A DNA stretch of 64,000 bases, taken from Planctomycetota bacterium (GTDB lineage Bacteria; Planctomycetota; PLA2; JAEUHO01). The stretch lies in assembly GCA_965223505.1 (NCBI GenBank), contig CBDCWP010000026.1, positions 96,001 through 160,000 on the forward strand. The letters are read 5' to 3'. Made by a program: the position numbers and the translations under genes. Positions 339 to 33,095 of the stretch are shown one piece after another. The notes under the pieces were generated by a model. It was not told the DNA's origin. It worked only from the letters and a program-made list of their open reading frames with translations, and searched no databases. The number at the start of each line of letters is the position of its first letter. Within the stretch, counting starts at the first letter, position 1.

Positions 339-417
339 GGGGGTGTAGCTCAGTTCGGTTTAGAGCGCCGGCCTGTCAAGCCGGAGGTCGCGGGTTCGAG
401 TCCCGTCACTCCCGCCA
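339..417 (+). tRNA. tRNA-Asp (GTC)
   Basis: Acceptor stem GGGGGTG/CACTCCC, D arm TAGCTCAG, anticodon arm CCGGC-CTGTCAA-GCCGG, T loop GGTTCGAGTCC, encoded CCA. Confidence 0.97.
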
Positions 418-652: not shown

Positions 653-2050
653 ATGCGGGGTTCCCCTGGAGCATCCGTGACACAGGCCGGACACGAAGCC
701 GAGAGGCTGCTGAACGAGCTACTGGGCTCGTCGTTGTGCTTGGACTTCGTCCTGTGGTCGCCCCAGTTCGACGATCGCGGAACGACCAAGGAGGTGTGCG
801 ACCACGTTCTGGAGCAGTCCGGTCAAGCGATTCCGATCCAGCTGAAGACGCAAGATCCCGCAGCAGAGCGCGACGGTGCCCGCGAACGGAAGTGGCTTCG
901 GAAGCATGGCGGGAAGGCCGTCCGGCAGCTCTCCGGCTCGATCTCGACGCTCGCTCGCCGTGACATCGACGTTTCGCACTTGCGTCGCGGCAGCTTCACG
1001 ATCAAGGCGGCGTCACTGGAAGTGATCCACGCCGTAGCCCTCGTGGACTCCCAGCAGGTCGCGGCCCTTGGGCTTCCCACGACTACGTCGCAAGGGGTCC
1101 CCGCTCACACTCTCACCGTCGCCGACTTCGTCTGGCTCGCGAACGAGCTGATGACGGTCCCGGACATGTTCATGTACCTGGACCGCCGGAGCGAGACTCT
1201 GGGTCGCCTCGAGCTGCCCGTGGGTGCGGAGAAGGCCCTGTACGCCTGGTATATCACCCACAAGAACTCCTTCGCCGAGCTCCAGGATCTCCCGTCCGCG
1301 GAATCCGCGGCCGTGGACCTCTACGTCGGCGACAACCAAGCGTTCTACGAGATGAAGCGCCAGGACGACCGGTTGGCGAAGCACTACCAGGACCTCATTG
1401 ACGGCACGCACAACGTCAACCCGGAGCTAAATACGGAGATGCCCGCGGAACTGGCAGCGGGCTGGACCTGGGAGCAGGCAGAGCGCGACTACATCAGGAT
1501 CGCCTACGAGTTGAATGCCGTTCCACGTGCGTTTCGGCGCGAGACGATGCGCAAGTTCCTTCACAAGTGCGAACTGGCTGAGGGGTCGTGGCGCCCGAGG
1601 TTCTACAGCGAGTACTTCTCGCCTCGAGAGACCGTATTTGTCTTTGCATCGTTCGACGGAGAGCCACAGAAGGCTTGGACGTGGCTCAACGGTCTTGCGC
1701 GGGGCGCCTGGGCCGCGATCGCTGAAAGGGGCTACCCGGTTGCCCGCGTCGTCGTTGCGATGGTGCCGAGCCGCGCCGGCGGAGACGGTGCGTTCCGTTA
1801 CCTGCACCTGGAACCTGAAGGCGAACCGGGTCCCAGGGATCGCGAAGCAGCAGCCCACCTGTTCGGCGCGACCTTCTCGCAGGAGGTGAACGAATTTCCG
1901 CACTTGCAGGCCCGGCCGGGTGAACTCCGTACGTTCGGGCCCGTGCCCGGCGAAGAGGTGAGGGCCGCTGCCCAGCAAATGAAGATCGGACGCAACGCAC
2001 CATGTCCATGCGGAAGCGGACGGAAGTACAAGAAGTGCCACGGGGCGTAA
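653..2050 (+). CDS. Putative PD-(D/E)xK/NERD-like nuclease fused to a C-terminal SEC-C motif
   Basis: N-terminal KEVCD...IPIQLK nuclease-like motif; C-terminal KIGRNAPCPCGSGRKYKKCHG. Start moved to ATG 653 because the ORF-track start lies in the repeat arm. Confidence 0.7.
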   Translation: MRGSPGASVTQAGHEAERLLNELLGSSLCLDFVLWSPQFDDRGTTKEVCDHVLEQSGQAIPIQLKTQDPAAERDGARERKWLRKHGGKAVRQLSGSISTLARRDIDVSHLRRGSFTIKAASLEVIHAVALVDSQQVAALGLPTTTSQGVPAHTLTVADFVWLANELMTVPDMFMYLDRRSETLGRLELPVGAEKALYAWYITHKNSFAELQDLPSAESAAVDLYVGDNQAFYEMKRQDDRLAKHYQDLIDGTHNVNPELNTEMPAELAAGWTWEQAERDYIRIAYELNAVPRAFRRETMRKFLHKCELAEGSWRPRFYSEYFSPRETVFVFASFDGEPQKAWTWLNGLARGAWAAIAERGYPVARVVVAMVPSRAGGDGAFRYLHLEPEGEPGPRDREAAAHLFGATFSQEVNEFPHLQARPGELRTFGPVPGEEVRAAAQQMKIGRNAPCPCGSGRKYKKCHGA

Positions 2051-2155
2051 CGTACCGCCACACACACTGCCCCGCGATCGGCTCGCCGTCTCGGCGCCTC
2101 GTAGGAGGCCGCTACGGATCCGGCTGCGTCAGCTGTTTCCACTACGCTGAGTACC

Positions 2156-3004
2156 ATGTCCGACGTCACGACTGCCTGGATTCGCGCGACCGACGAAGAG
2201 CTGGCGCGTAGGGAGATCCCTGCGCGACGGCGCCCCTGGTCTGCCTGGAGCGAGTGGTCCAAGAAGAACGGACCATCCAGCCTGAGCGGCCCGGCCGCTC
2301 AGTTGATCTTCAAGTGGTACGAGGAGAACTACACGCGCGACGCATTCATCGTCGGGAGCCTGTTCACCGGCGCCCTCTACTTTGATCAGGGCATCTGGCC
2401 CGTCGAGGTCCCACTGGTTTACGGTAGGTGCCGTCTGGATGTGAACGGAATGGTTGCCAGCATGCCGTCCATCGTTTTCGAGCGCATGGCGAAAGACCAA
2501 AGCGCTTTCCGCACTTTCGCCGCCCTCGCAGCTGACTGCATCGACTATGGCCTGGGATTCGACGATCTGGCGAACATCAGTCTGGCGTCTTCGCTGGCAA
2601 CTAACATGTTGGTCAGCGCCGACAAGGAGCTTCGCTCAGCGGTTGTCTTGTTGCTGTCAAATCGTCCCAATCAGAAGGTTGCTGAGTCTGCGCGCTTGGC
2701 AACAGAGATGTTCCTGAAGGGCTTTCTCGCTCACTACACGGGGCTTGACGAGAGAGGTGCCAGGAACATCGGCCACAATCTGCACAAGGCCCTCGATGAG
2801 TCCCTTGCTCACGACCCGAGTTCGGATCTTCGAGTCCTTAGCGGTCTGCTGGGCCGGCTCCCGGCCATCGCCGAGCGGTACAGGGTGGCGAAACGCTCGA
2901 TCGGTGAGTTGTGGAGCGCCTACTCACTAGCCCAGATCGCCGGGACTGCCCTTGTCCGATCCCTCTCTGATCGAGACTGTCGGCCGAGCATGATGGTGTC
3001 CTAG
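2156..3004 (+). CDS. Protein with C-terminal HEPN-like domain
   Basis: ARLATEMFLKGFL...GHNL...ERYR resembles the HEPN helical signature. Confidence 0.55.
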   Translation: MSDVTTAWIRATDEELARREIPARRRPWSAWSEWSKKNGPSSLSGPAAQLIFKWYEENYTRDAFIVGSLFTGALYFDQGIWPVEVPLVYGRCRLDVNGMVASMPSIVFERMAKDQSAFRTFAALAADCIDYGLGFDDLANISLASSLATNMLVSADKELRSAVVLLLSNRPNQKVAESARLATEMFLKGFLAHYTGLDERGARNIGHNLHKALDESLAHDPSSDLRVLSGLLGRLPAIAERYRVAKRSIGELWSAYSLAQIAGTALVRSLSDRDCRPSMMVS

Positions 3005-3373: not shown

Positions 3374-3841
3374 CTACTTCTTGCCGTTGGAGCCTTCGTC
3401 GGTGTCCGCCTTCTCGGCTTGGGCGTCGGTGAGCACGACTTCGGCCTTCCTCAGATTCATGATGGGCAAGAGTAGCGGCGGCTGACCAGCACGGACGGTG
3501 AGGCTCCAGACAATTTCCCTCAGGTAAGGCCAGAGAAACGCAGGTGCGTTGGTGCGTGCGAACTCCTCGGGGGGCATTGAAGGCTCGCCGGACCAGTTGA
3601 ACAGCGCCCTCATCACAATGGTAGCGTCGATCGCTGCCGTTTCTCCGTCCGCAGACTCAGACCGCAGCCCCGCAGTCACGACAATACTGCGGGCCTCTTT
3701 GTCGACGACGCTCCTGATGGCGTAGTCCCACTCGGGAGCACTGAGCTCGCTCTCGGCGCTCTCTTCGACACGGAAAGATGCAGACCGGAGCTTGATCTCC
3801 TTGGCTCGATAGCCCGACGGAGAACTCTTCGTGCGCGTCAT
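3374..3841 (-). CDS. SecB-like chaperone
   Basis: NAPAFLWPYLREIVWSLTVRAGQPPLLLPIMNL matches the SecB C-terminal signature; start overlaps the upstream stop (TGATG). Confidence 0.85.
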   Translation of the reverse strand: MTRTKSSPSGYRAKEIKLRSASFRVEESAESELSAPEWDYAIRSVVDKEARSIVVTAGLRSESADGETAAIDATIVMRALFNWSGEPSMPPEEFARTNAPAFLWPYLREIVWSLTVRAGQPPLLLPIMNLRKAEVVLTDAQAEKADTDEGSNGKK

Positions 3842-4272
3842 CAGGCGGCCAAACTGAAGCCCTGCATATCTTCGTCACTCAAATCGTCGTCAGTGGATCG
3901 GGGGCTCCACGCATTGCAGGACCAGAACCACTCGGTGTCGTGGACCACGATCGGATCACCGTGCGCATGATCGAGAAAGAACTCTCGAATTAGGACTTGC
4001 TCATGTTGGTCGGGATAGTGACGCTTCGTCGCCGAACGGTAGTGCGGAATGACGGACACGTCACAAAGCCTAGACGACTCGACGTCGGCGTAAACCTCAA
4101 GCATGAAGCGAACGAACTCCTCGCCGACGCCATCAGGCAGGCCGAACACGTCGAGCACTGGTCCTCCCTCATCGACAGGGAGGCTGTGGTCGAGTTGCGT
4201 GACCACTTGGGGCCACCGACTTCGCAGCACCCGCGTGTAGTGGTTCAGGATTTCGTCGTCGCTGTTCGCCAA
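3841..4272 (-). CDS. Putative antitoxin with an aromatic/acidic C-terminal tail ending in LAA
   Basis: Lies between the HEPN and SecB-like genes, tightly coupled; tail TEWFWSCNAWSPRSTDDDLSDEDMQGFSLAA; TTG start. Confidence 0.55.
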   Translation of the reverse strand: MANSDDEILNHYTRVLRSRWPQVVTQLDHSLPVDEGGPVLDVFGLPDGVGEEFVRFMLEVYADVESSRLCDVSVIPHYRSATKRHYPDQHEQVLIREFFLDHAHGDPIVVHDTEWFWSCNAWSPRSTDDDLSDEDMQGFSLAA

Positions 4273-4274
4273 GG

Positions 4275-4703
4275 CTATGTACTCACGTTCATGCTACCGA
4301 GATACTCGGGGATTCGCTCCCAAAGGGGAGCCAATTCGCCGGCTTCCACATCGTCCGGCTTGTAGTCCGACTTGATCCTCAAATCCCTGAGGCTCCTCGC
4401 GAAGGGCCCAGGCGGAGTGCCACCGAGGAGCGACCCGGCGAGTGGTGCGCAACCGCAGACAACGTCATGCGGCCATTGGCCACTTGCGTCCCCAGCACCC
4501 TGTTTGAAATCGCCAGGGACGCTTCCTCTGCTGGTCATGGCACCGACTATCGCCTGGTAGATGGCGTAGTAGGCTCGGCTGGCAGCACCGTTCATTTGAC
4601 GCGCCCTGTGTAGGGCCCTAGCTTCGCGCCATGTTGCCGCAGCCTTGCGCTTCACCGGTCCACCATCTCCCCACACGGTCGGCCCCCCGCGGGACCGATC
4701 CAC
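4275..4703 (-). CDS. HEPN domain protein (putative toxin)
   Basis: SRAYYAIYQA...WPH...LRDLRIKSDY is typical of small HEPN proteins; start could instead be GTG 4655. Confidence 0.8.
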   Translation of the reverse strand: MDRSRGGPTVWGDGGPVKRKAAATWREARALHRARQMNGAASRAYYAIYQAIVGAMTSRGSVPGDFKQGAGDASGQWPHDVVCGCAPLAGSLLGGTPPGPFARSLRDLRIKSDYKPDDVEAGELAPLWERIPEYLGSMNVST

Positions 4704-5051: not shown

Positions 5052-5447
5052 TCACTTGGCCTTGCTGATACTCCCGTCACGTATGCGCATGCACCATCGA
5101 CCCTCTCCGTCCGACACGGATCTCGACCACTTTCGGATCTTGTCCCAGTACCGCAGCAAGGTGAGAGCCTGCTGGCGAGCACGGAAGTTGGCGAACCCCT
5201 TCCCCAAGAAGAGAATTGGGCGAGAGCAGTCCGCCCATGCTCTCCTCTCGCGCTTCCCACGATCAAGTGTGACCACTACCCAGCCCGTTCTCGAATTGAG
5301 CTTGAGGATCCACTCAGCGTCAGGCGTCGGGGGATCAAAACTCTCCGTAAGGTGCTCGTACTCTTCTAACTCACCCTCAAGTTGGGCCAGCCTCGCGAGG
5401 AACTCGACAATGGGTCGCGGGACGCAGTTGTCGAAGAAGAACTTCAC
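5052..5447 (-). CDS. PIN-domain toxin (VapC45/DUF5615-like)
   Basis: MKFFFDNCVP...TPDAEWI...WVVVTLD PIN acidic residues; GTG start overlaps the antitoxin stop (GTGA). Confidence 0.85.
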   Translation of the reverse strand: MKFFFDNCVPRPIVEFLARLAQLEGELEEYEHLTESFDPPTPDAEWILKLNSRTGWVVVTLDRGKRERRAWADCSRPILFLGKGFANFRARQQALTLLRYWDKIRKWSRSVSDGEGRWCMRIRDGSISKAK

Positions 5448-6130
5448 GCAGCCGATCGATCGTCCAGGAACTGCTCGAATCGAACAGCGGCGCGGACCTC
5501 CGCGCCGGATGCACCGTACCAAGATGCCGTCGCCTCCACACCAGCCCCAGAGAGTGCGTGTGCCGCAAGAACCTGAGTTTCGACTCCCGCGATCGAAGTA
5601 ACGGGACGTCCAAACCGGTACTCAGGAGAGACCATCACAAGATCACGGACGTCGTGTAGCCCCCTACCGGGGTTCCACTTCGCCACCAGCCCGTCATCGC
5701 CAAACGTCACATCTTGAAGGTAGGGGTCCAGAATCGCGTGCCAGGCTTGCTGATTCTTGAGTAGCTCAACGAGGAGCGGCTCCTCCTCTTCCTGCGTGAT
5801 CTCGAGGAAGATGGTCCGGCCGAGTGTCCGAATGCGTTGACTCGCAAACGGATAGTCCAACGCCCAGGTCGTCCGGGCGCGATGAAGTGCCCGCCGAATG
5901 GCCTGAAGACTGACGCCCCGACTCCGAAGAATGTGAACCAATCTAAGTTGCTGAAGATCCAGAAACCCGAGAACAAGATCATCGTCGTAGCGGGGGCGCC
6001 ACAGGGGGCCGTAGCAGCGTCCCTTGGTCTGGTATCCATGCGTCCAATCGCGGACTCGGCGACGCGGAACACCGGTTAAGCGGCTCGCCGCCGGGACGTC
6101 GTACAGGCCATGACCGAGGACGGCGCTCAT
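5444..6130 (-). CDS. HTH + DUF433 antitoxin (VapB45-like)
   Basis: LYDVPAASRLTGVPRRRVRDW HTH; VSPEYRFGRPV...ASWYG...VRAAVRFE DUF433-like; ATG at 6130. Confidence 0.85.
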   Translation of the reverse strand: MSAVLGHGLYDVPAASRLTGVPRRRVRDWTHGYQTKGRCYGPLWRPRYDDDLVLGFLDLQQLRLVHILRSRGVSLQAIRRALHRARTTWALDYPFASQRIRTLGRTIFLEITQEEEEPLLVELLKNQQAWHAILDPYLQDVTFGDDGLVAKWNPGRGLHDVRDLVMVSPEYRFGRPVTSIAGVETQVLAAHALSGAGVEATASWYGASGAEVRAAVRFEQFLDDRSAA

Positions 6131-6219
6131 ACAACAACCACCTCTTTCTCCTTGCTCATATCGTACGTCGGTGCATCGCGCTTGTGTCCAAAGCGCGGGT
6201 GAAGGCAATTGTAAGACGC

Positions 6220-7452
6220 TCAATCGACATGAGCGGAGAGGGTCGGGCCGCAAGTCAGGCGTTTCATACCCGAGGACGCCGATGCGGCGCCTGCCTCGAC
6301 GGCGGAATGGAGGTCTAGAAGCCGCACGTCGGTGTAGGTCCTCATAGTCAACTCAAGCCGCGAATGACGAGCCAGCGCCTGCGCTGTCCTGGGATGAACG
6401 CCAGCAGCCGATAGGCGGCTGATCATCGTGACACGCAGGCTGTGGAAATCGACGATGCGCCCCTGGTCGTCCTCGCCGTCGAGCCTGGCGTGCTTGAGAT
6501 CGGCGTTGACGGTGCCGTGGGTCGGGAACAGGCGGCCCGGGAACAGGGCGTCGTGCGGCGCGGTCCCGAGCCCGGCTCCATCAACGCGAGCGCGATGCTC
6601 TGCCAGCCCGTCGGCCACGTCGCTGCGAAGGGGCAGTTCCGTCTGCTTCTTGGACTTCGTGATCGAGGCCCGCACGGTCAGCGTGCGCCGCTCCTCGTCC
6701 ACGTCGGCCCAGGTCAGGCCCCGCAGCTCGCCCTTGCGAAGCCCGGTGCCAAGCGCGAATAGATACAGGTACGCCCGCGTCTCCCCCAGCCGTCGCAGCT
6801 TCGCTTCCTGCGGGGGCGTCACGCCAGTCCGTGTGCGCTTGACGCGTGCCCGTTCCAAAGGACGCCGTCGGGCGGCGTCGAGCAGCCGCTCGACCTCCTC
6901 GTCGGTCAGGGCGCGGCGCACACGACGTCGATCCGTTTCCTCGTTGCGGGGCGAGAGGCCCTCAAATGGGTTGTGCGACCAGCGGCGTGTACGAACGAGC
7001 CAGTTGCCGAACTGCCGCAAGGATGCGAGTCGCTTGTTCACGGTTCGCGCCGAGAGCCGTTCCGCGAGCTCGGCCAGCCAATGCTGCGCCTCCACCAGGT
7101 CGATCTGAGGCAGCGTGCGCGCCTTGGTCATCTCGAGGTACGTGCGGAGCGAATGAACGCGATCGCGATGGTGCTCCTTGCTCACACCGCGGCTCTTGAG
7201 GAACGCACAGAACTCGTCGATGTGCTCCTTCAGCGGTCGCTCGGCGTTTTCCTCGAACGGGTTCGCCAGCCCCACCGCCTTGCGTTCCTCGCGCTCGATC
7301 ATTTGCAACGCCCGCATTTCGGCCACACGCTTGTCGCGGGTACCGAGCGACTTGCGGATGAGCTTGCGGTTGACGTTGGCCTGGACCCAGTAGACGCGAC
7401 CGGTCTGCATCTCGCCCTGGCGGTTCTTGAACTTGGGGCGGTAGATCCTCAT
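6220..7452 (-). CDS. int: Tyrosine recombinase/phage integrase
   Basis: Catalytic R (GTGLRKGEL), K (ITKSKK), HxxR (FHSLRVT), H (LARHS), Y (RTYTD); ATG 7452 overlaps the upstream stop. Confidence 0.95.
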   Translation of the reverse strand: MRIYRPKFKNRQGEMQTGRVYWVQANVNRKLIRKSLGTRDKRVAEMRALQMIEREERKAVGLANPFEENAERPLKEHIDEFCAFLKSRGVSKEHHRDRVHSLRTYLEMTKARTLPQIDLVEAQHWLAELAERLSARTVNKRLASLRQFGNWLVRTRRWSHNPFEGLSPRNEETDRRRVRRALTDEEVERLLDAARRRPLERARVKRTRTGVTPPQEAKLRRLGETRAYLYLFALGTGLRKGELRGLTWADVDEERRTLTVRASITKSKKQTELPLRSDVADGLAEHRARVDGAGLGTAPHDALFPGRLFPTHGTVNADLKHARLDGEDDQGRIVDFHSLRVTMISRLSAAGVHPRTAQALARHSRLELTMRTYTDVRLLDLHSAVEAGAASASSGMKRLTCGPTLSAHVD

Positions 7453-7967
7453 TTGCCCGACTCCCGGACGGTCCCGAGGGGCCAGCCGTCGGGTCCGGGG
7501 GAACGGGACAGGCGTACGTGGCCGCACTCACACTGGAAGGGACCGAGGTCGCCCTCCGCGTCCCAGACCTCGACGTCGTTGAGCGTCGCGCGATGAAGCG
7601 CCATGCCCGAGAGGTCCTTGCCGGTGTAGAGCGCGGTGGCGCCGGCGCAGGCCCTGCACATGCGCCGCTCGTTGTCGCCGTAGTACACGGCGTGGTCGAT
7701 GAGAACGGCTCTCGGCTCGGTCACCTCGTCCGTAGCGACATCGCGCGCCGCCATCAGCAGCGCGTTGGCGGCCACACAGGCGTTGGAGAGGCCGTCGAGC
7801 TGATGCCGGTACGCCGAAGCAATGCCAAGTGCCTGCAGCGGCGCTGCGTTACTCAGAGCATCCAGAGCCTGCGCCAGTTCGTCTGCAAGCGTCTCAGCCT
7901 TGTCCCGGCCGTCGTCGAGCATCTCCGCCGCGGCGGCAAGCAGAGAGGCCCTGGGCGCGGCGCTCAC
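7449..7967 (-). CDS. Hypothetical protein with CxxC and CxC motifs
   Basis: ORF coupled to both neighbours by overlapping start/stop; CRAC, CECGH. Confidence 0.6.
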   Translation of the reverse strand: MSAAPRASLLAAAAEMLDDGRDKAETLADELAQALDALSNAAPLQALGIASAYRHQLDGLSNACVAANALLMAARDVATDEVTEPRAVLIDHAVYYGDNERRMCRACAGATALYTGKDLSGMALHRATLNDVEVWDAEGDLGPFQCECGHVRLSRSPGPDGWPLGTVRESGK

Positions 7968-13706: not shown

Positions 13707-13775
13707 CCGAGGACCCGGCCAGCGCCCTGGACCCCGCCGACCTCGAAGAACAGGCCAAGGCCACGATCGAGTCGT
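13703..13775 (+). pseudogene. 5' stub of the next element gene, cut by the transposon
   Basis: GTG overlapping the MTase stop; VTEDPASALDPADLEEQAKATIES runs into the transposon end. Confidence 0.5.
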
Positions 13776-13874
13776 TGTCTCCCTCGACGAATAGGTGACC
13801 TGCGAAGGGCAGGAAACCGGTGTTGATAAGGCTCTCTCCTTTGGCTGGCCTATGTGCCAGGGAAAGGAAGAGAG

Positions 13875-15236
13875 ATGAACGACGATACGAAGGCGCCCGA
13901 GAGGTTGGACGGCCCGCTTCCGAAGGGAGGCGGAGGCGACGAAGTCGCCGGAGCCGAGCGGAGGAAGCGGGCCGTGAGCGGCTACGTGCCCCGCGGCACA
14001 CGCAGCCGTCGTGCTCGAACGGTGCGAAGCGACGCATCGCGTAGCGCGGAGTTCACGGGCGAGCAGCGCCTGTTGGCGCTTGACTGTTGGTTTCGCAGCG
14101 AGCTTGCGGCCACGGAGTTCGCGCCGCTGATCGGCGTGAGCACGGCGTCGCTGTACGCGTGGCGTCGCAAGTTCGAGGAGGAGGGCCCCGCCGGTTTGCT
14201 CGGGCACAAGCGCGGCATGAAGGGCAGCGGGCTGCCCGAGCCGGCGCGCCGTGCGATCCTGATGATGAAGGACGCGCATCCGGACTGGGGCCAGGATCGG
14301 ATCCACGACATGCTGATCCGAACGGAGGGTATCTCGGTTTCAGGCGGCGCGGTTCAGCGCGTGCTGAAGGAAGCGGGCTACGAGGTGGAGGCGGTTGCGC
14401 CGGCGCGCAACCCGCCCAAGGTGAAGCGATTCGAGCGCAAGCGACCGAACGAGCTTTGGCAAACGGATCTATTCACGTTTCTCCTGAAGCGCGAGCGTCG
14501 GCGCGTGCACCTGGTTTGCTACCTGGACGACTTCTCGCGTTTCATCGTGGGCTTCGGGCTTCACGCATCGGCGTCGGGTGCGATGGTTCGGGAGACGTTC
14601 GAGCAGGCGATCGCGAACTTCGGCGCGCCCGAGGAGATTTTGACCGACAACGGCGCGCAGTATCAGACCTGGCGCGGGAAGAGCTCGTTTCGCAAGCTTT
14701 GCGAGAAGCGCGGCATCAAGCAGATCGTGGCCAGGCCGAGGCGGCCGCAGACGCTTGGCAAGATCGAGCGTTTCTGGGGCACGCTGTTTCGCGAGCTGAT
14801 CGACGGAGCGATCTTCCGCGGCATGGAGGACGCCAAGACGCGCATTGCCCACTTCATCGGCTTCTACAACTTCCAGCGCACCCACCAGGGCATTGGCGGC
14901 CTGGTTCCAGCGGACCGATTCTTCGAAGCCTCGCAGAGCGTGCGCAGCGCCCTGCAGGAGGCGGTTGCAACGAACGCCAAGGAGTTGGCGCTTCACGGTG
15001 AGCCGCGCAAGCCCTTGTACCTGGCGGGTCGAATCGGCGACGAGCCGGTGTCGCTTCACGCCGAGGGCGACAAGGTGCTGTTGACGGACAAGGACGGCGT
15101 TCGCGAAGAGGTCGACTTGCGGGCATCGGGCAAGCGCAAGGATGCGGCCAAGGAGGGGCCGGGCGAGAGCGTGCTCGACGACGTGCTCGAGGAGCTCAAG
15201 GCCCTTGACGAGGCGCCCACGAAGGAGCAGGAGTAA
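13875..15236 (+). CDS. DDE transposase (IS481-like, HTH + rve)
   Basis: LWQTD, LDDFSR, LTDNG, PQTLGKIER; ATG 13875 follows an AG-rich RBS. Confidence 0.92.
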   Translation: MNDDTKAPERLDGPLPKGGGGDEVAGAERRKRAVSGYVPRGTRSRRARTVRSDASRSAEFTGEQRLLALDCWFRSELAATEFAPLIGVSTASLYAWRRKFEEEGPAGLLGHKRGMKGSGLPEPARRAILMMKDAHPDWGQDRIHDMLIRTEGISVSGGAVQRVLKEAGYEVEAVAPARNPPKVKRFERKRPNELWQTDLFTFLLKRERRRVHLVCYLDDFSRFIVGFGLHASASGAMVRETFEQAIANFGAPEEILTDNGAQYQTWRGKSSFRKLCEKRGIKQIVARPRRPQTLGKIERFWGTLFRELIDGAIFRGMEDAKTRIAHFIGFYNFQRTHQGIGGLVPADRFFEASQSVRSALQEAVATNAKELALHGEPRKPLYLAGRIGDEPVSLHAEGDKVLLTDKDGVREEVDLRASGKRKDAAKEGPGESVLDDVLEELKALDEAPTKEQE

Positions 15237-15742
15237 TGCCTACGAAGAAGAAGAACGTGACGACGATCACGGCGAGCAAGACGTCGCGCAAGCACGTGGC
15301 AGTGATATTGGAAGCGCTCTCAGGCGAGATCGGCACGAGCGAGGCGGCTGAGCAGATGGGCGTGTCGCTCTCGCGCTACTACCAGCTCGAAGGCCGTGCT
15401 TTGAAGGGCATGCTGCGGGCGATGGAGCCGAAGAAGCGCGGCATCCAGAAGACGCCGCAGCGCGAGATATTGGCGCTGAAGGCCGAGAAACAGCACCTGG
15501 AGAAGGAGCTTCGGCGGCACCAGTCCCTGCTTCGTGCGGCCAATCGAAGCCTGGGGCTGGCGCGCGGCGGGCGCAAGCAGGCATCCTCGAAGAAGGGCCG
15601 CAGCGCCAAGCGCGGCCACCGCGGCAAGACGGTGCTGAAGACGCTGCGCACGGGCCTTGAAGAGAAAGGAAACGGCGATGGGACGGCGAAGCGAGATGCC
15701 GACGCTGGTGGCGCGCACGTCGGCGAGCGAGACGGCGCGTGA
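15236..15742 (+). CDS. Transposon accessory HTH/coiled-coil protein
   Basis: TSEAAEQMGVSLSRYYQLE HTH; start coupled to the transposase stop. Confidence 0.8.
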   Translation: MPTKKKNVTTITASKTSRKHVAVILEALSGEIGTSEAAEQMGVSLSRYYQLEGRALKGMLRAMEPKKRGIQKTPQREILALKAEKQHLEKELRRHQSLLRAANRSLGLARGGRKQASSKKGRSAKRGHRGKTVLKTLRTGLEEKGNGDGTAKRDADAGGAHVGERDGA

Positions 15743-16073
15743 GCGCGTGAAGGTGATTCTGCTCACGCTTGGCCGGCAGTGGAGCGTTGGCGATGCGTGC
15801 GAGCGTTTGGGCATCGGCCGAACGCGCTTCCAGGATCTTCGACGTAGGTTCTTGCAGGCCGGCGTTGAGGCGCTTGAAGGCGGCGCTTGTGGCCGGCCGC
15901 GCGCCGTGCTGCCTGACGACGATCATGAGCTTGAGCGCGAGGTGTCGAAGCTACGGCACCGAGTGCGCGTGGTGCGCACGCAGGTGGACATCTTCGATTG
16001 CGGGCTTGGCGAGGCGCCGCGGGTTCGGCACGCGCTGCATGTGGCGCACCAGGAAGGTTGGAGGCAGCGATGA
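15678..16073 (+). CDS. Transposon accessory HTH protein
   Basis: SVGDACERLGIGRTRFQDLRRRF...GRPR; RBS AAAGGA. Confidence 0.8.
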   Translation: MGRRSEMPTLVARTSASETARERVKVILLTLGRQWSVGDACERLGIGRTRFQDLRRRFLQAGVEALEGGACGRPRAVLPDDDHELEREVSKLRHRVRVVRTQVDIFDCGLGEAPRVRHALHVAHQEGWRQR

Positions 16074-17176
16074 GCGAGAAGATGTCGTACGAGGAGCAGG
16101 TGAAGTTCCGGCTTCAGGCCGTGGAGGTGATGCGGCGAAGTGGCTGGGACAAGGAAACACGCGCCTACCTGGCGCGAGTCCTTGGCGTGGCCGAGCGAAC
16201 GATCAGGCGTTGGGAGCTTCGCGTTCGCCAGGGCAAGCCGGTGTACGAGAAGCGTGGCCGCAAGGCCGATGACGTACCACGAGCGAAGCGGCAGAAGGTG
16301 CTGCATGCGATGTTCAAGCTGGGGCCGTTCTCGGGTGTGGCCGTACTTCGGGGCATGTTCAGCGACGTACCGTATCGCGTGCTTTCAGAGATGAAGAGGC
16401 GCCTGCTACGGGTGGCGCTGCGTCGATGGCGCTGGTATCGCAAGCGGCTAGAGTGGGTTCGTTCCGGGGCGGTGTGGGCGGCGGACTTCACCAGGCCCAA
16501 GGCTGGCCTCTGGCAGGGCAAGGATCGACTGTTCCTGGTTCGCGATCTCGGAAGCGGAGCGCAGCTGGCGGCCGTAGCCTGCCGGGGCGAGAAGACGAAG
16601 ACTGTGTGCGCGGCGCTGCTCGCTTTGATCACGCTGTTCGGAGCGCCGCTGATTCTGAAGAAGGACAACGCGGGCGCGTTTCGCTCGGAACAGACGGCCG
16701 CGTTGCTCGAGGAGCACGGCATCACGCCACTCACGTCGCCGCCGTACACGCCCGCCTACAACGGCGCGTGCGAGCGCAGCGGCGGGAACTTCAAGCGACG
16801 TGTACAGCACATCGCGCAGATGGAAGGACATCCCCGCATCTGGCTACCTCAAAACCTCGACGACGCCTTGCTCGTTGCGAATACGACGGCGAGGCCATGG
16901 GGTGCGACTGGGCCGACGCCGGCGGAGGCTCTTGAAGACCGCCGGCCGATCACGAGGCAAGAGAGAACGGCATTTGAGCACGATCTGAAGTTCGAGACCG
17001 ATGCCGCGCTCAAGACATTCAAGGAAAGAAACGCTAGAATGCCGACGTGCATCGAGCGCGCGTCAATCGACCGCAGCGCGACGCAGAGAACGCTCTGCAA
17101 GCACGGCTATCTACAGTTCCGGAGAGGGCGCTTATCAACACTAGTTTCCGCTTGGCGGACGCGGCCTAACGCGTAG
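16070..17176 (+). CDS. Second DDE transposase/integrase (HTH + rve)
   Basis: LARVLGVAERTIRRW HTH; WAADF, KKDNA, PAYNGACER; ATGA overlap at the start. Confidence 0.9.
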   Translation: MSEKMSYEEQVKFRLQAVEVMRRSGWDKETRAYLARVLGVAERTIRRWELRVRQGKPVYEKRGRKADDVPRAKRQKVLHAMFKLGPFSGVAVLRGMFSDVPYRVLSEMKRRLLRVALRRWRWYRKRLEWVRSGAVWAADFTRPKAGLWQGKDRLFLVRDLGSGAQLAAVACRGEKTKTVCAALLALITLFGAPLILKKDNAGAFRSEQTAALLEEHGITPLTSPPYTPAYNGACERSGGNFKRRVQHIAQMEGHPRIWLPQNLDDALLVANTTARPWGATGPTPAEALEDRRPITRQERTAFEHDLKFETDAALKTFKERNARMPTCIERASIDRSATQRTLCKHGYLQFRRGRLSTLVSAWRTRPNA

Positions 17177-17184
17177 GGGACACA

Positions 17185-18388
17185 GTACACGGACGTCGGT
17201 GGGACTACGCAGGTCTCAGATTCAAACGGGAATCTGACGGACAACGGAACGTATCTGTTCGAATACGACTACAGGAACCAGATCGTTCGCGTGAAACTGA
17301 AGTCAGATAGCTCGACTGTGGCGGAGTACCTCTACGACGCGCTGGGGCGGCGGGTCGAGAAGGAGGTAGGCGGCGACGTCTGGCGGTTCATCTACTCGGA
17401 CCTAGAGACAGTCGCCGTCTACGATGGGAGCAATAGCTGGCTGCAAGACTTCGTGTTCGGTCAACGAATCGATGAGGTCTTGATGCTCGAGCAGGCGGAC
17501 GTGCTCGACTTCGATGGGGATTCGAATACGACCGAGACGACGCGATCCTTCTACCATCTAAATGCCCTGGGGTCGGTGACTGAGATCACCGAGATGGACG
17601 AGGACGTTGCCGCCAGCTACCGCTACGACCCCTACGGCGCCGTGACGATTATTCGGAACAGCACCGAAGAGTCCGAGGACCCACTTGGGCAACCCTGGAT
17701 GTTCACAGGCAGGTTTGCCGATGAAGAGACGGGGATGTACTACTACCGCTCAAGGGCGTACGATCCGGAAGTTGGGAGATTCACTCAGCGAGACGGACTC
17801 AGCTACGCATCGGGTCCCAATCTATACGAGTACGTCGGGAGCCATCCTCCTTCCGGAAGAGATCCTCTCGGGCTTGAGGAAGAAGACACCGACGAGAAGA
17901 GCGCCGAAGACAAGCCGGACCAAGGTCCGGACACAGAGAAACTCATGAAGCCCAGGTGGCGGCCACCCGGCCGCGCAGGCTGGACCGCCGCATTTACGAA
18001 GGCACACCTCGAGTGGTGGGAGGTTATTATCCGCGAGTACGAGCTGCACGGGCATCCGGCGGAGCGCCGCCGTCCCGCTCCCGCGAAGCCCGAGAAAACC
18101 GCGTTCGACAAGGACGGCACGTCCCCACCGCCCTGGATGGTGATCCCCCATGTACCTGCAGGTGGGGGGGGGACGACCGTCTGCCCTGGGTCTGGGCCGA
18201 AGTCTCTGCGTGATTGGCTGGGTGATAAGGATCTGCCTCCGTGGCTGGTCGCGCCCCATCTTCTTGACGAACCGCTCGACGGCGAGAGTAACGCTGACGG
18301 CTCGGACGACGCGGGAAGTGACGGCGCGGGCAAGGGTGAGACAGAAGGCGACAAGAAGACCGGCGAGAGCGGGAAGCCCGCCAAGTAG
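17185..18388 (+). pseudogene. 5'-truncated Rhs/YD-repeat protein: core plus variable C-terminal tip
   Basis: Frame open from the transposon end; YDALGRR, YDPYG, FTGR..DEETGMYYYRSRAYDPEVGRFTQRD, PPSGRDPLGL (PxxxxDPxG) followed by a distinct tip. Confidence 0.9.
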
Positions 18389-21244: not shown

Positions 21245-21555
21245 GTCGTGCACGGACGTGCGCACAGTCATGCCGATTTGTGGCAAAGACACCCGAGGCT
21301 GAATCTGCAACTTACGCCGTTGCAAACAGTTACGACTTGGGCTCGCCGGCCTGTCAAGCCGGAGGTCGCGGGTTCGAGTCCCGTCACTCCCGCCATTCTT
21401 GTTGCGCCCAGTTGCACTATCTCGCGCCCCGGTGCGCACTTCGGGCGATCTCGCGCCACGGCCGCCGATTCCTTACATCTCGCAACGATGTGCGAGGAAG
21501 TGCGAGGTCGTGGCAGAAGAACAGCAAAGAAGTGGTCATAGTCACTTTGCGGCGC
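21245..21555 (+). repeat. Junction att site 2: left arm (21245-21343), tRNA-Asp 3' core (21344-21399), right arm with the 45-bp motif (21503-21547)
   Basis: Core identical to the tRNA; left arm homologous to 26021-26119; right arm homologous to 422-575. Confidence 0.92.
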
Positions 21556-22509: not shown

Positions 22510-23298
22510 GAGGCGCCTGCTACGGGTGGCGCTGCGTCGATGGCGCTGGTATCGGAGGCGGCTAAAGTGGGTTCGTGCCGGGGCGGTGTGGGCGGCGGAC
22601 TTCACCAGGCCCAAGGCTGGCCTGTGGCAGGGCAAGGATCGACTGTTCCTGGTTCGCGATCTCGGAAGCGGAGCGCAGCTGGCGGCCGTAGCCTGCCGGG
22701 GCGAGAAGACGAAGACTGTGTGCTCGGTGCTGCTCGCTTTGATCACGCTGTTCGGAGCGCCGCTCGTTCTGAAGAAGGACAACGCCGGCGCGTTTCGCTC
22801 GGAGCAAACGAAGGCGTTGCTCGAGGAGCACGGCATCACGCCACTCACGTCGCCGCCGTACACGCCCGCCTACAACGGCGCGTGCGAACGAAGCGGCGGC
22901 AACTTCAAGCGACGTGTGGAGCACATCGCGCAGATGGAAGAACATCCCCGCATCTGGCTCCCTCAAAACCTCGACGACGCCTTGCTCGTTGCGAATACGA
23001 CGGCGAGGCCATGGGGTGCGACCGGGCCCACGCCGGCGGAGGCCCTCGAAGACCGCCGGCCCATCACGAGGCAAGAGAGAACAGCATTCGAGCACGATCT
23101 GAAGTTCGAGACCGATGCCGCGCTCAAGACATTCAAGGAAAGAAACGCTAGAATGCCGATGTGCATCGAGCGCGCGTCAATCGACCGCAGCGCGACGCAG
23201 AGAACGCTCTGCAAGCACGGCTATCTACAGTTCCGGAGAGGGCGCTTATCAACACTAGTTTCCGCTTGGCGGACGCGGCCTAACGCGTAGGGGACACA
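22510..23298 (+). mobile_element. Partial copy 3 of the dual-DDE transposon (3' part of second transposase + right end)
   Basis: Near-identical to about 16397-17184; ends GGGGACACA. Confidence 0.92.
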
Positions 23299-23801
23299 GA
23301 AGCACCATGCCGAGAAAGAATGGACCTGGACTATGGTCTGTGATCCACAGGACAGCCTTTACTACGTGACGTCGCACTACACAACGTCAGCGCAAAGCTA
23401 CATGTTCACAGAGGTTGACGATATCCTGGACTGTGATTACGCCAACGCGATTAACTACATTCGGATCAAGAACAGAGGTTGACGATATCCTGGACTGTGA
23501 TTACGCCAACGCGATTAACTACATTCGGATCAAGAACGACAATCTGGGCGAAGCATACCGCACCTACAAGGACGAGATTGAATCTGAGAACACCAATTCC
23601 AGTTCAGAAAATGTCAGAAGCAAGCAAAGCGGCACCGGAACAACGGCCGCAGTCGGGGATGGGTCGTTGTTCAGCGCGAGCACGAAGATAGAGTGTCACA
23701 CGTACGCAAAGAGCGAAGCACACGCACACGGCAACTTGGTCGAGTACACCTGTGGCCCGAATTTCCTTCCGATTCCAGCACCTCCGGATGACGACGACTA
23801 G
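23299..23801 (+). pseudogene. 5'-truncated low-GC gene fragment frameshifted by a 64-bp duplication
   Basis: Frame KHHAEKEWTWTMVCDPQ...TEVDDILDCDY runs on to PAPPDDDD-stop if one 64-bp unit is removed. Confidence 0.6.
23408..23537 (+). repeat. Perfect 64-bp tandem duplication
   Basis: ACAGAGGTTGACG...GGATCAAGA begins at both 23408 and 23472. Confidence 0.95.
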
Positions 23802-26020: not shown

Positions 26021-26330
26021 GTCGTGCAACGACGCGCGCACAGTCATGCAGATTTGTGGCAAAGACGCTCGCGGCCGGTCTTGCAACTGACGCCGTTGCA
26101 AGCAGTTACGACTTGGCCTCGCCGGCCTGTCAAGCCGGAGGTCGCGGGTTCGAGTCCCGTCACTCCCGCCAGTCTTCTTGCACGACGTCGCCCCAACTTG
26201 CGCGACGTTGCACGCTTGCGGCGATCTCCCTAGCGGAGCGCCCGATCCCTTACTTCTCGCAGCAATGTGCAAGGACGTGCGAGGTCGTGGCAGAAGAACA
26301 GCAAAGAAGTGGTCATAGTCACTTGGCGCT
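26021..26330 (+). repeat. Junction att site 3: left arm, tRNA-Asp 3' core (26120-26171), right arm with the 45-bp motif (26280-26324)
   Basis: Homologous to 21245-21555 and to 366-575. Confidence 0.92.
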
Positions 26331-28823: not shown

Positions 28824-29686
28824 GTGAGCACAGCTAGAGCACATCTTCAGCAGGCTACAGTCGTGTTCGCACTCGTGGCCGCTTGCGGCCTGCGAACACC
28901 CACGACAGTTCATGGGGAACCAACTCCGGCGGACTCCACACTTGATGTTCACATAGTCGGCGCGACAGATGCCGGCGACAAGTGGATGCGAGTTGTGGTT
29001 CGCGAGTTGATTCCGTCCTCAACGAGACGACATCACTCGATTGGACAACTGCTTTGGGTTGCTAGAGTCAAGTCTAAGGGTGGTAGAGCGCGGACTTCTC
29101 TTCCTCATAGCGCAGTTCGCGAGTTTCTGGCGGTCTCTGCGTCAACTTCGCAGTCCTGCGAGTACTGGAACGCCGCGGGCCCGCTGCAAGTGGACAAACC
29201 GAATGTGGTAAGGATCCCTGTAGAACTGACGCTGGCACGAACCGCCACTGGTAAAGTCCGTCACTCCAATGAGTGCCGCTGCGAGAAGTCAGTCGTCTGG
29301 TTTCGCAGAGCCAAAGCTCCCTGGGCACCACGCGGTTCAGCGGCCTCCGCGATGCGCCTTTTCCCACTTGATTTGGGCGGTGAGCCCAAAGCAGTAGTCT
29401 CCAGGCTGTGGGTATCCCGGTCTGTGCAGGTGCAGCCGTCTGGCCGATATGTACTTAGAGGGATCGAAGCCGGCGCTGACTACGATCTTGACGTGGTCTC
29501 CTCTACCTGTGGAGAGTCTCAGACCGTTACCTGGAAGGCCGAAGATGGAGAAAGGGCGCCCGAGCTTGTGGTTCAAGAGCCGGGCGACCTTGTCGTACGC
29601 ATCGATTGGCGCGTCGAGCAATCGAAGTCCCGCTATTCGCTCGATTTGGGACCCGCTCCCTTCAGACGCCGACGGTTCAGCGCGAC
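28824..29686 (+). pseudogene. Secreted beta-sandwich (carboxypeptidase-regulatory-like) protein, 3'-truncated by transposon copy 2
   Basis: Signal-like N-terminus; SGRYVLRGIEAGADYDLDV; ORF runs into the transposon end. Confidence 0.55.
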
Positions 29687-29694
29687 TGTGTCCC

Positions 29695-30801
29695 CTACGC
29701 GTTAGGCCGCCTCCGCCAAGCGGAAACTAGTGTTGATAAACGCCCTCTCCGGAACTGTAGATAGCCGTGCTTGCAGAGCGTTCTCTGCGTCGCGCTGCGG
29801 TCGATTGACGCGCGCTCGATGCACGTCGGCATTCTAGCGTTTCTTTCCTTGAATGTCTTGAGCGCGGCATCGGTCTCGATCTTCAGATCGTGCGCGAATG
29901 CCGTTCTCTCTTGCCTCGTGATGGGCCGGCGGTCTTCGAGGGCCTCCGCCGGCGTGGGCCCGGTCGCACCCCATGGCCTCGCCGTCGTATTCGCAACGAG
30001 CAAGGCGTCGTCGAGGTTTTGAGGTAGCCAGATGCGGGGATGTCCTTCCATCTGCGCGATGTGCTGTACACGTCGCTTGAAGTTCCCGCCGCTGCGCTCG
30101 CACGCGCCGTTGTAGGCGGGCGTGTACGGCGGCGACGTGAGTGGCGTGATGCCGTGCTCCTCGAGCAACGCGGCCGTCTGTTCCGAGCGAAATGCGCCGG
30201 CGTTGTCCTTCTTCAGAATGAGCGGCGCTCCGAACAGCGTGATCAATGCGAGCAGCGCCGCGCACACAGTCTTCGTCTTCTCGCCCCGGCAGGCTACGGC
30301 CGCCAGCTGCGCTCCGCTTCCGAGATCGCGAACCAGGAACAGTCGATCCTTGCCCTGCCACAGGCCAGCCTTGGGCCTGGTGAAGTCCGCCGCCCACACC
30401 GCCCCGGCACGAACCCACTTTAGCCGCCTCCGATACCAGCGCCATCGACGCAGCGCCACCCGTAGCAGGCGCCTCTTCATCTCTGAGAGCACTCGATACG
30501 GCACGTCGCTGAACATTCCCCGAAGTACGGTCACACCCGAGAACGGCCCGAGCTCGAACATCGCACGCAGCACCTTCTGCCGCTTCGCTCGTGGTACGTC
30601 ATCGGCCTTGCGGCCACGCTTCTCGTACACCGGCTTGCCCTGGCGAACGCGAAGCTCCCACCGCCTGATCGTTCGCTCGGCCACGCCAAGGACTCGCGCC
30701 AGGTAGGCGCGTGTTTCCTTGTCCCAGCCACTTCGCCGCATCACCTCCACGGCCTGAAGCCGGAACTTCACCTGCTCCTCGTACGACATCCTCTCGCTCA
30801 T
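29695..30801 (-). CDS. Second DDE transposase (copy 2)
   Basis: Near-identical to 16070-17176. Confidence 0.9.
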   Translation of the reverse strand: MSERMSYEEQVKFRLQAVEVMRRSGWDKETRAYLARVLGVAERTIRRWELRVRQGKPVYEKRGRKADDVPRAKRQKVLRAMFELGPFSGVTVLRGMFSDVPYRVLSEMKRRLLRVALRRWRWYRRRLKWVRAGAVWAADFTRPKAGLWQGKDRLFLVRDLGSGAQLAAVACRGEKTKTVCAALLALITLFGAPLILKKDNAGAFRSEQTAALLEEHGITPLTSPPYTPAYNGACERSGGNFKRRVQHIAQMEGHPRIWLPQNLDDALLVANTTARPWGATGPTPAEALEDRRPITRQERTAFAHDLKIETDAALKTFKERNARMPTCIERASIDRSATQRTLCKHGYLQFRRGRLSTLVSAWRRRPNA

Positions 30802-31193
30802 CCCTGCCTCCATCCTCCCTGGTGCGCCACATGCAGCGCGTGCCGAACCCGCGGCGCCTCGCCAAGCCCGCAATCGAAGATGTCCACCTGCGTTCGCACC
30901 ACGCGCACTCGGTGCCGTAGCTTCGACACCTCGCGCTCAAGCTCATGATCGTCGTCAGGCAGCACGGCGCGCGGCCGGCCACAAGCGCCGCCTTCAAGCG
31001 CCTCAACGCCGGCCTGCAAGAACCTACGTCGAAGATCCTGGAAGCGCGTTCGGCCGATGCCCAAACGCTCGCACGCATCGCCAACGCTCCACTGCCGGCC
31101 AAGCGTGAGCAGAATCACCTTCACGCGCTCACGCGCCGTCTCGCTCGCCGACGTGCGCGCCACCAGCGTCGGCATCTCGCTTCGCCGTCCCAT
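30798..31193 (-). CDS. Accessory HTH protein (copy 2)
   Basis: Near-identical to 15678-16073. Confidence 0.8.
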   Translation of the reverse strand: MGRRSEMPTLVARTSASETARERVKVILLTLGRQWSVGDACERLGIGRTRFQDLRRRFLQAGVEALEGGACGRPRAVLPDDDHELEREVSKLRHRVRVVRTQVDIFDCGLGEAPRVRHALHVAHQGGWRQG

Positions 31194-31635
31194 CGCCGTT
31201 TCCTTTCTCTTCAAGGCCCGTGCGCAGCGTCTTCAGCACCGTCTTGCCGCGGTGGCCGCGCTTGGCGCTGCGGCCCTTCTTCGAGGATGCCTGCTTGCGC
31301 CCGCCGCGCGCCAGCCCCAGGCTTCGATTGGCCGCACGAAGCAGGGACTGGTGCCGCCGAAGCTCCTTCTCCAGGTGCTGTTTCTCGGCCTTCAGCGCCA
31401 ATATCTCGCGCTGCGGCGTCTTCTGGATGCCGCGCTTCTTCGGCTCCATCGCCCGCAGCATGCCCTTCAAAGCACGGCCTTCGAGCTGGTAGTAGCGCGA
31501 GAGCGACACGCCCATCTGCTCAGCCGCCTCGCTCGTGCCGATCTCGCCTGAGAGCGCTTCCAATATCACTGCCACGTGCTTGCGCGACGTCTTGCTCGCC
31601 GTGATCGTCGTCACGTTCTTCTTCTTCGTAGGCAT
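31129..31635 (-). CDS. Accessory HTH/coiled-coil protein (copy 2)
   Basis: Protein identical to 15236-15742. Confidence 0.8.
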   Translation of the reverse strand: MPTKKKNVTTITASKTSRKHVAVILEALSGEIGTSEAAEQMGVSLSRYYQLEGRALKGMLRAMEPKKRGIQKTPQREILALKAEKQHLEKELRRHQSLLRAANRSLGLARGGRKQASSKKGRSAKRGHRGKTVLKTLRTGLEEKGNGDGTAKRDADAGGAHVGERDGA

Positions 31636-32996: not shown

Positions 32997-33095
32997 CTCT
33001 CTTCCTTTCCCTGGCACATAGGCCAGCCAAAGGAGAGAGCCTTATCAACACCGGTTTCCTGCCCTTCGCAGGTCACCTATTCGTCGAGGGAGACA

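Follow-up and report, generated by a model that had tools for sequence, protein, structure and literature searches.

The locus described here lies in a stretch of 64,000 nucleotides from a Planctomycetota bacterium (positions 96,001 to 160,000 of contig CBDCWP010000026.1, assembly GCA_965223505.1), referred to below as the window. Three tightly coupled open reading frames (ORFs) on the minus strand were found between positions 3374 and 4703, and these are designated T, A and C. T encodes a small HEPN-domain protein and putative toxin, A a putative antitoxin, and C a SecB-like chaperone (Table 1). Reading of the sequence placed the TAG stop codon of T (4277-4275) at a distance of 2 nt from the TTG start codon of A (4272), and the TGA stop codon of A overlaps the ATG of C by 1 nt (TGATG, 3843-3839). 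An original prediction, made from the letters of this DNA without database searches, had described three coupled genes at these positions and the motifs SRAYYA and RIKSDY in T, all of which was confirmed. It had also likened the locus to toxin-antitoxin-chaperone (TAC) systems, in which a toxin, an antitoxin and a SecB-like chaperone are encoded in that order. The order and coupling of the three co-oriented genes bear this out.

The reading frame of T is open upstream to a GTG at 4703, and from this first GTG the gene (4275..4703) would encode 142 aa. BLASTP aligned residue 4 of a homologue from another genome (locus L001, described below) to residue 20 of the 142-aa form, and because the alignment begins there the GTG at 4655, giving a protein of 126 aa, is the most likely start as judged by sequence comparison. 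A GGAG is located 11 nt upstream of this codon. The start of A is placed at TTG 4272 because its relatives align from residue ~6-14 (phmmer). The only entry for A in a set of 5.8 billion proteins is a shortened call of 105 aa (P0001). Automated annotation would give no more than a short orphan and a "SecB" at this locus, with T missed and A truncated. The three genes are more than chance ORFs: C belongs to the Pfam family SecB, A has 26 relatives, and a homologue of T is located upstream of a homologue of A. The case for T as a real gene is thus built on homology at the sequence level.

Table 1. Positions of the features discussed in the text (numbering of the window, except for the two plasmid triplets).
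Feature	Position	Strand	Remarks
T, HEPN-domain putative toxin	4275..4655	-	126 aa; homologue alignment favours GTG 4655
T His63 (WPHD), candidate alternative catalytic histidine	4467..4469	-	invariant in 4/4 sequences; N-terminal to the Arg motif
T Arg93-Ile-Lys-Ser-Asp-Tyr98, at the Rx4-6H position with Tyr replacing His	4362..4379	-	R93, K95, D97 and Y98 invariant in 4/4 sequences
A, putative antitoxin	3841..4272	-	143 aa, TTG start, C-terminus ...MQGFSLAA
A N-terminal globular domain (residues 1-102), putative toxin-binding domain of an unnamed family	3967..4272	-	phmmer relatives, AlphaFold2
A C-terminal tail (residues 103-143), ChAD-like	3844..3966	-	HGDPIVVHDTEWFWSCNAW, then acidic STDDDLSDEDMQGF, then SLAA; AlphaFold2, composition
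A C-terminal Leu-Ala-Ala, putative ClpX degron	3844..3852	-	sequence reading; literature on LAA
C, SecB-like chaperone	3374..3841	-	155 aa
tRNA-Asp, integration site of the island with the three genes	339..417	+	ARAGORN
SEC-C-motif protein, 505 aa	533-2050	+	last ~22 residues SEC-C zinc motif, Pfam E 3.8e-10
Uncharacterised protein, 282 aa	2156-3004	+	follows the SEC-C gene on the same strand
PIN_10-domain protein and MerR/HTH-like protein	5052-5522 and 5444-6253	-	PIN_10 E 1.8e-16; the HTH-like gene precedes
Tyrosine integrase of the island	6220..7527	-	Pfam Phage_integrase E 1.2e-20
Plasmid triplet L002, Thiodictyon plasmid pTs417	1407-2749		two hypothetical genes and "protein-export chaperone SecB"
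Plasmid triplet L003, Acinetobacter indicus pBDT201-1	1423-2791		two hypothetical genes and "protein-export chaperone SecB"

T belongs to the AF0298-like type of HEPN proteins, which does not have the Rx4-6H motif. This is supported by sequence profiles, by the predicted fold, by the ESM Atlas and by the Pfam assignments of its relatives. The homologue at L001 (137 aa) is 34% identical to T (E 2e-24, BLASTP). A word-index protein search using the single sequence of T as a query gave no match, and the same search using a profile of two T sequences retrieved three proteins. Two of the relatives, P0030 (35.4 bits; 35% identical to T, E 3e-15) and P0031 (24.1 bits), pass the Pfam HEPN model across the full domain, and through them T would belong to this family by transitivity. 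When a profile of four sequences was compared with the proteins of the Protein Data Bank (PDB), it matched 9xbd, a "HEPN domain-containing protein", over almost the full length (E 1.3e-7), as well as 9xbc, a Y-to-F variant of 9xbd, and AF0298 (2hsb, E 0.012). An AlphaFold2 (AF2) model of T, built from a shallow alignment of only four sequences, has a mean predicted local distance difference test score (pLDDT) of 79.8 and a predicted template modelling score (pTM) of 0.78, and shows the all-alpha four-helix HEPN fold. The top seven rows of a Foldseek search with this model are all HEPN-type structures (TM-score 0.62-0.71, probability 0.96-0.99), with 2hsb at TM-score 0.71, and all 30 matches in the ESM Atlas are HEPN clusters (top score 0.96).

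Nine residues of T (R27, Y29, Y30, H63, R93, K95, D97, Y98 and D101) are invariant in all four aligned sequences. The RxxxxY of T, which the original prediction had noted as a departure from the canonical RxxxxH of a small HEPN, is indeed present; it is not an oddity of T, being the pattern of the AF0298-like HEPN group, and the same arrangement is seen in PDB 9xbd (RNRSDY). In the AF0298-like HEPN-T family the histidine of the Rx4-6H motif has been described as missing, with the arginine retained and a second conserved histidine located N-terminally, and an alternative active site using this N-terminal histidine was proposed in 2013 (Anantharaman et al. 2013, PMC3710099). The invariant His63 of T would be a candidate for this residue.

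As judged from alignment and modelling, the first ~100 residues of A appear to fold into an as yet unnamed domain of alpha/beta type, of which 26 distant relatives were found. An exhaustive phmmer search with A retrieved 28 proteins at E<=0.001. The alignment consists of the 26 relatives that match residues ~6-97, leaving out P0001, which is A's own truncated copy, and P0002 (1698 aa), in which no stretch was scored. The relatives share only the first ~90 residues, where they are 23-35% identical to A, and the most recognizable motifs of the family are LDVFxIPD and LIPHxxSxTxxxYP. No Pfam family was found at E<=0.01 for any of the 26 relatives, and A itself matched no family in Pfam, NCBIfam, PADLOC or PHROGs. 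An AF2 model built from the family's own alignment has a pLDDT of 84-98 per block up to residue 100 and the topology H-E-E-H-E-H-H (H, helix; E, strand). A Foldseek search of this model against the PDB gave no match at E<=0.001, the best row being a BolA-like protein (E 0.066, TM-score 0.59 on the target), and nothing significant was found in a library of viral structures. A profile of A matched PDB sequences only by chance (E 0.28), and the ESM Atlas gave no usable match. A possible minimal nucleotidyltransferase (MNT) fold was also considered for A and rejected, as the rows for MntA and other nucleotidyltransferases in the Foldseek search have E-values of only 0.7-1.8 and TM-scores of 0.3-0.45.

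Beyond this conserved domain A has a further 56 residues, which include seven aromatic, 13 acidic and two basic residues. The tail is predicted to be disordered, with a pLDDT of 75 for residues 101-110 and of 47-53 beyond residue 110, and the protein ends in SLAA. The aromatic and acidic tail with a terminal LAA claimed in the original prediction is therefore borne out, and it resembles a chaperone addiction (ChAD) tail in both sequence and predicted disorder, whereas the homologue from the chaperone-free locus L001 has a basic tail. An Ala-Ala C-terminus is found in six of the 27 members of the family, i.e. in A and in five of its 26 relatives. With an expected rate of 0.0078 per protein, the binomial probability of five in 26 is 1.7e-6. 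The five relatives (P0004, P0006, P0013, P0019 and P0023) have aromatic tails of 40-134 residues with 4-21 aromatics, and the alignment of the closest of them, P0004, to A reaches residue 118, within the first aromatic cluster. Ten of the 26 relatives, the SecB-less L001 copy among them, instead have tails with 9-15 Lys/Arg residues.

The role of such tails is known from other TAC systems. Aromatic residues in the ChAD tail make the antitoxin chaperone-dependent (bioRxiv 10.1101/2024.02.24.581848), and in HigA1 the degron and the chaperone site are both located within the ChAD (PMC8165232). The terminal Ala-Ala of the antitoxin CmdA is a ClpXP signal, and substitution of AA by DD abolishes the toxicity of CmdTA (bioRxiv 10.1101/2024.02.24.581848). 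In CmdA and further TAC antitoxins, the signal for ClpXP has been described as LAA (PMC11618068). The original prediction had pointed to the LAA of A as the end recognised by ClpX; the sequence does end in this way, but the feature is not new since published TAC antitoxins share it. Furthermore, ChAD/SecB modules are transferable between toxin-antitoxin (TA) families, and two-gene TAs can receive them by grafting (PMC5105189).

The identification of C as SecB-like was upheld. C passes the Pfam SecB model (PF02556) with 29.6 bits against a cut-off of 26 (E 7.6e-7), and matches PD-T4-9_C, the model for the CmdTAC chaperone in PADLOC, with an E-value of 3.5e-11, but is far under the cut-off of every NCBIfam SecB equivalog (at best 26.7 vs 143 bits). 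The best match among PDB sequences is the Mycobacterium tuberculosis TAC chaperone Rv1957 (5mtw, E 0.0013), with Haemophilus influenzae SecB (1fx3) behind it (E 0.076). These family scores suggest that C resembles TA-associated SecB more than housekeeping SecB. A tblastn search of plasmids using C as a query gave only two matches (L002 and L003), each being the third gene of a triplet encoding a 191- or 208-aa protein, a 97-aa protein and a "SecB". The middle proteins of the two triplets end in ...FPLAAS and ...DDEYLLAA, and for neither of the first two genes did Pfam or PADLOC give a family above threshold. Both plasmid triplets look like unannotated TAC modules.

The pairing of T with A is conserved in a second genome. 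GTDB species representatives were scanned for the pattern P[VL][LF]DVF[CG][VLI]PD, which was derived from an alignment of six A sequences. Four stretches matched the pattern, and two of them encoded an A relative, yielding a single locus, L001. In this locus, from a Planctomycetota metagenome-assembled genome, the T homologue (3575-3988) ends 9 nt before the A homologue (3998-4384), which is 29% identical to A over residues 1-88 and has a Lys/Arg-rich tail. The original prediction had proposed a survey for triplets of HEPN, a second gene and SecB: the T-A pair was recovered at one locus in one other genome, without a SecB gene there. T and A thus appear from sequence comparison to be a conserved pair, which forms a two-gene module in L001. 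Because the L001 copy is basic-tailed and without SecB, the version in the window would be this two-gene module with a gained tail and chaperone.

A direct interaction between the two proteins is also predicted. T was co-folded with residues 1-105 of A, alongside three controls, using alignments built in this analysis. The T-A pair scored 0.86 and the best of the three controls 0.01. Among solved complexes 116 of 157 attain this mark, as do two of 215 mismatched pairs; these counts apply only approximately here since the alignments were our own. At least 96% of contacts are common to the runs, and the pLDDT of the partner is at least 86. The predicted interface comprises residues 62-64 (including His63), 94-95 and 98-101 (including Lys95 and Tyr98-Asp101) of T and residues 31-85 of A, including helix 50-65 and the conserved IPH strand 73-78. 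In the model A is thus placed over the putative active face of T, and the most conserved motifs of both families touch. HEPN-MNT complexes have solved structures, and recall of these by the model may contribute to the prediction, although A is unlike an MNT. The co-fold supports binding of A to T without demonstrating it.

We consider it probable that T, A and C constitute a three-gene TAC module on a tRNA-Asp integrative island, in which an ordinary TAC design has been placed on a new toxin-antitoxin pair. Beyond the gene arrangement, the domain identities, the conservation of T with A, the tail properties and the predicted T-A interface described above, we infer toxicity, RNase chemistry, tail-C binding, ClpXP dependence, a trigger and a defence role along the following lines. 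T would be a growth-arresting RNase, using His63 together with Arg93/Lys95 instead of the canonical Rx4-6H pair. The N-terminal domain of A would bind T and cover its His/Arg/Tyr face, giving a type II neutralisation and not an AMPylation, and the disordered aromatic/acidic tail with its LAA degron would make A unstable. A tetramer of the SecB-like C would bind the tail and shield it from ClpXP, and neutralisation of T would last only as long as free C is available. If the analogy to CmdTAC and HigBAC holds, the tail would be released when another client competes for C, such as a phage capsid or tail protein just synthesised, or proteins unfolded by stress. Degradation of A would follow, setting T free.

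A number of findings weigh against this reading. Neither a promoter-like site nor a terminator could be assigned to the operon itself, nor was there an operator-like inverted repeat, including upstream of T; the sole terminator-like site, at 5237-5217, is located upstream of the operon, within the PIN_10 gene. A is without a recognisable DNA-binding domain, which leaves autoregulation unexplained. No second T-A-C triplet was found in a very shallow survey using one narrow pattern that yielded one locus. Tblastn searches gave no match to A or T in plasmids or phages, none to C in phages, and none in plasmids to the AA-tailed relatives P0013, P0006 and P0019. The Foldseek rows for T have E-values of 0.27-0.74, with no match at E<=0.001, and T itself fails the gathering score of PF05168, scoring 19.0 bits as the 126-aa form and 18.6 bits as the 142-aa form against a cut-off of 22, with a sub-threshold match that covers the N-terminal helix only. 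The remaining points, concerning the missing motif histidine, the weak coding signal of T and the SecB-less L001, also bear on particular alternatives.

The most serious of these alternatives, although an unlikely one in our view, is that the HEPN is catalytically dead and the trio no toxin system but a module for regulation or RNA binding under chaperone control, or else what is left of a decayed TA system. The RIKSDY of T is without the histidine of the canonical Rx4-6H motif, a paper from 2024 states that, of the HEPN-MNT toxins, class I alone has this motif, which RNase function needs, the class II HEPNs being said to lack a motif required for RNase activity (PMC11586414), and the 2013 analysis also admits non-catalytic HEPNs (PMC3710099). 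Because of the missing histidine and the 2024 statement, RNase activity and toxicity of this HEPN type are unproven, and the low Pfam score of T would fit a dead HEPN as well. However, His63, Arg93, Lys95, Asp97 and Tyr98 are kept in all four sequences at an overall identity of 34-37%, and the 2013 analysis ties such a pattern to an alternative active site, not to inactive forms (PMC3710099). The antitoxin is also predicted to sit exactly upon these residues, and a degron-tagged, chaperone-guarded partner would be pointless with nothing to restrain. That the T frame has arisen by chance in GC-rich DNA, leaving A and C as a toxin-less antitoxin-chaperone pair of the kind described by Sala (2013), is the least credible of the explanations considered. 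It could draw on the weak codon-position GC signal of T (GC1/2/3 = 0.62/0.56/0.67) and on the failure to find T in the set of 5.8 billion proteins, but is effectively refuted by the full-length T homologue that precedes an A homologue, in the same position, in another genome. Two further relatives of T passing the Pfam HEPN model and the confident AF2 model likewise speak against a chance frame.

The chaperone gene could be an unrelated neighbour of a two-gene T-A pair, for instance a general chaperone of the island, and we regard this as improbable. L001, the sole other T-A locus, is without a SecB relative in its whole 8.3 kb (best tblastn match E 0.15 over 15 residues); binding of the tail by C is argued from analogy, and the SEC-C protein encoded nearby could be the chaperone's real partner. 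Against this stand the 1-nt overlap of the A stop and C start codons and the higher scores of C with TAC chaperone models than with the SecB equivalogs, which it misses widely. A furthermore carries an extra tail ending in the TAC-typical LAA, missing from the SecB-less homologue, and the middle proteins of the two unrelated plasmid triplets end in the same acidic-aromatic-LAA pattern. The original prediction had suggested that the antitoxin might be a degenerate MNT-fold protein, and in that case the locus would be a disguised HEPN-MNT (type VII) system, where A, as a diverged nucleotidyltransferase, AMPylates Tyr98 of T. MNTs are the usual partners of HEPN toxins. T has a conserved tyrosine in its motif, the Y-to-F variant of a related HEPN has been crystallised (9xbc), and MntA and minimal nucleotidyltransferases do appear as weak rows in the fold search with A. 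But these rows are at the insignificant level given above, the GSx10DxD motif of Pol-beta-type MNT antitoxins is not present in the A alignment, and beta1 and beta2 form a hairpin without the intervening helix. Neither Pfam, NCBIfam nor PADLOC gave a nucleotidyltransferase match for A, the 26 relatives being likewise without a Pfam family, and the toxin gene comes first. The suggestion of an MNT fold did not hold, and we regard a type VII system here as very improbable.

The TAC module favoured here shares with the known TAC systems (M. tuberculosis HigB1-HigA1-SecB^TA Rv1955-57, E. coli CmdTAC/PD-T4-9, MqsRAC, HigBAC and the HicAB type) the order of overlapping genes and the location on a mobile island. 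Its third gene encodes a SecB-domain protein nearest to the TAC chaperone models, and its antitoxin has a disordered aromatic extension ending in LAA. It differs in that the toxin is a HEPN protein and not a HigB, MqsR, HicA or ADP-ribosyltransferase, in that the globular domain of A has an unnamed alpha/beta fold without a helix-turn-helix (HTH), ribbon-helix-helix or MqsA-type DNA-binding domain, and in being known from sequence and models and not from experiment. The likeness to the type VII HEPN-MNT (HepT/MntA) systems consists of a small HEPN and presumed toxin beside a small neutralising protein, and of a conserved tyrosine beside the arginine motif. In these systems, however, the neutralising protein is a nucleotidyltransferase, which A is not, having no GSx10DxD and no significant fold match. 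The toxin gene comes first here, the motif is RxxxxY and not RX4HXY, and neutralisation is predicted to take place by binding, with a third gene for a chaperone. The AF0298-like HEPN-T or PF05168 "class II" proteins (2hsb, 9xbd) match T in profile and fold, and share with it the missing motif histidine and the conserved upstream histidine, but the published members encountered are stand-alone or MNT-linked, whereas T is partnered by the A family and a SecB. Restraint of a HEPN toxin by an unstable binding protein, whose loss frees the RNase, is also known from RnlA-RnlB and LsoA-LsoB (PMC3710099). No relation in sequence or fold was seen between A and RnlB, RnlA has the canonical motif and is a large HEPN with multiple domains, and there is no chaperone in those systems.

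The three genes are located in the first of several related islands. The 3' 52 nt of the tRNA-Asp gene and ~160 nt of flank (366-578) recur at 21344-21555 and 26120-26328, the three repeats being in direct orientation and 85-90% identical, and because of this recurrence the region is regarded as related tRNA-Asp islands in a tandem array. There is also a second integrase fragment (40757-41398 vs 6295-6936, 83% DNA identity). The module lies within the ~5.8 kb that separate the tRNA-Asp gene from the integrase. Between it and the integrase, the PIN_10 and HTH-like genes probably represent a second toxin-antitoxin-like pair; as listed their ORFs overlap, and the starts need refining. On the other side, the gene of the SEC-C protein is convergent with that of C and 1.3 kb away. 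The best PDB sequence matches of the SEC-C protein are C-terminal peptides of SecA, including the SecB-bound 1ozb_I, so that this protein might act as a second partner or competitor of C; since SEC-C motifs are common, coincidence is also possible. For the 282-aa protein no match was found in Pfam, NCBIfam, PHROG or PDB sequences, and only a weak one to PADLOC HEC-01A (E 0.031). Genes for a Prim-Pol/AAA_25 protein and a ParB-methylase, as well as insertion sequence copies, follow further along. A 3.4-kb inverted repeat with 99% identity (13775-17186 / 29685-33096), carrying two rve-type transposase ORFs, represents two copies of one insertion sequence, of which a 790-bp piece recurs at 22510-23299. 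The only PADLOC match above threshold is that of C, and the label "defence hotspot" used in the original prediction is plausible from the neighbours.

HigBA, MqsRA, HicAB and unclassified partners have been listed for TAC systems, whose gene order was described as toxin-antitoxin-chaperone (Sala 2013), three families of TAC antitoxins have been described (Bordes 2016, PMC5105189), and CmdTAC has added an ADP-ribosyltransferase toxin (PMC11618068). The original prediction knew of no characterised HEPN TAC, and none emerged here either. A full-text search, whose scope did not extend to subscription-only papers and bioRxiv supplements, gave no paper in which HEPN toxins are connected with SecB chaperones, the co-occurrences of the terms that were checked being reference lists or unrelated passages, and "HEPN" was not found in the text of a supplement to Sala 2013. 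The candidate had been put forward as a new TAC class. Because the TAC design is known and has been shown to be modular, we regard it as a new variant and not a new class, the novelty being the toxin-antitoxin pair, in which A represents an unnamed family whose interface with the putative active site of T is strongly predicted.

We tentatively go one step further, to a speculation we hold with less confidence than the TAC module itself. The AF0298-like "class II" HEPNs may be genuine toxins with their own non-MNT antitoxin family, whose new alpha/beta fold plugs the His/Arg/Tyr face. This family would exist in two states, one with a basic tail and no chaperone, and one with an aromatic/acidic, AA-ending tail and a captured SecB. 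More boldly still, C could have another client or a competitor in the 505-aa SEC-C protein, which matches the SecB-docking SecA peptide in its last 22 residues. If the speculation is true, the antitoxin family would record how a fourth and unrelated TA family came by chaperone addiction through natural grafting, and its split into basic-tailed and AA-ending members could show how such addiction arises in nature. With T missed and A truncated by automated gene calling, modules of this kind would be overlooked by neighbourhood surveys.

It is now known that TAC systems act as anti-phage sensors whose chaperone reads the structural proteins of viruses, and the printed repertoire of their toxins consists of HigB, MqsR, HicA and the ADP-ribosyltransferase CmdT. 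A HEPN-based TAC would bring the most widespread RNase fold of defence systems into this list, and would offer a tractable test of whether the non-canonical (RxxxxY) HEPNs are active toxins.

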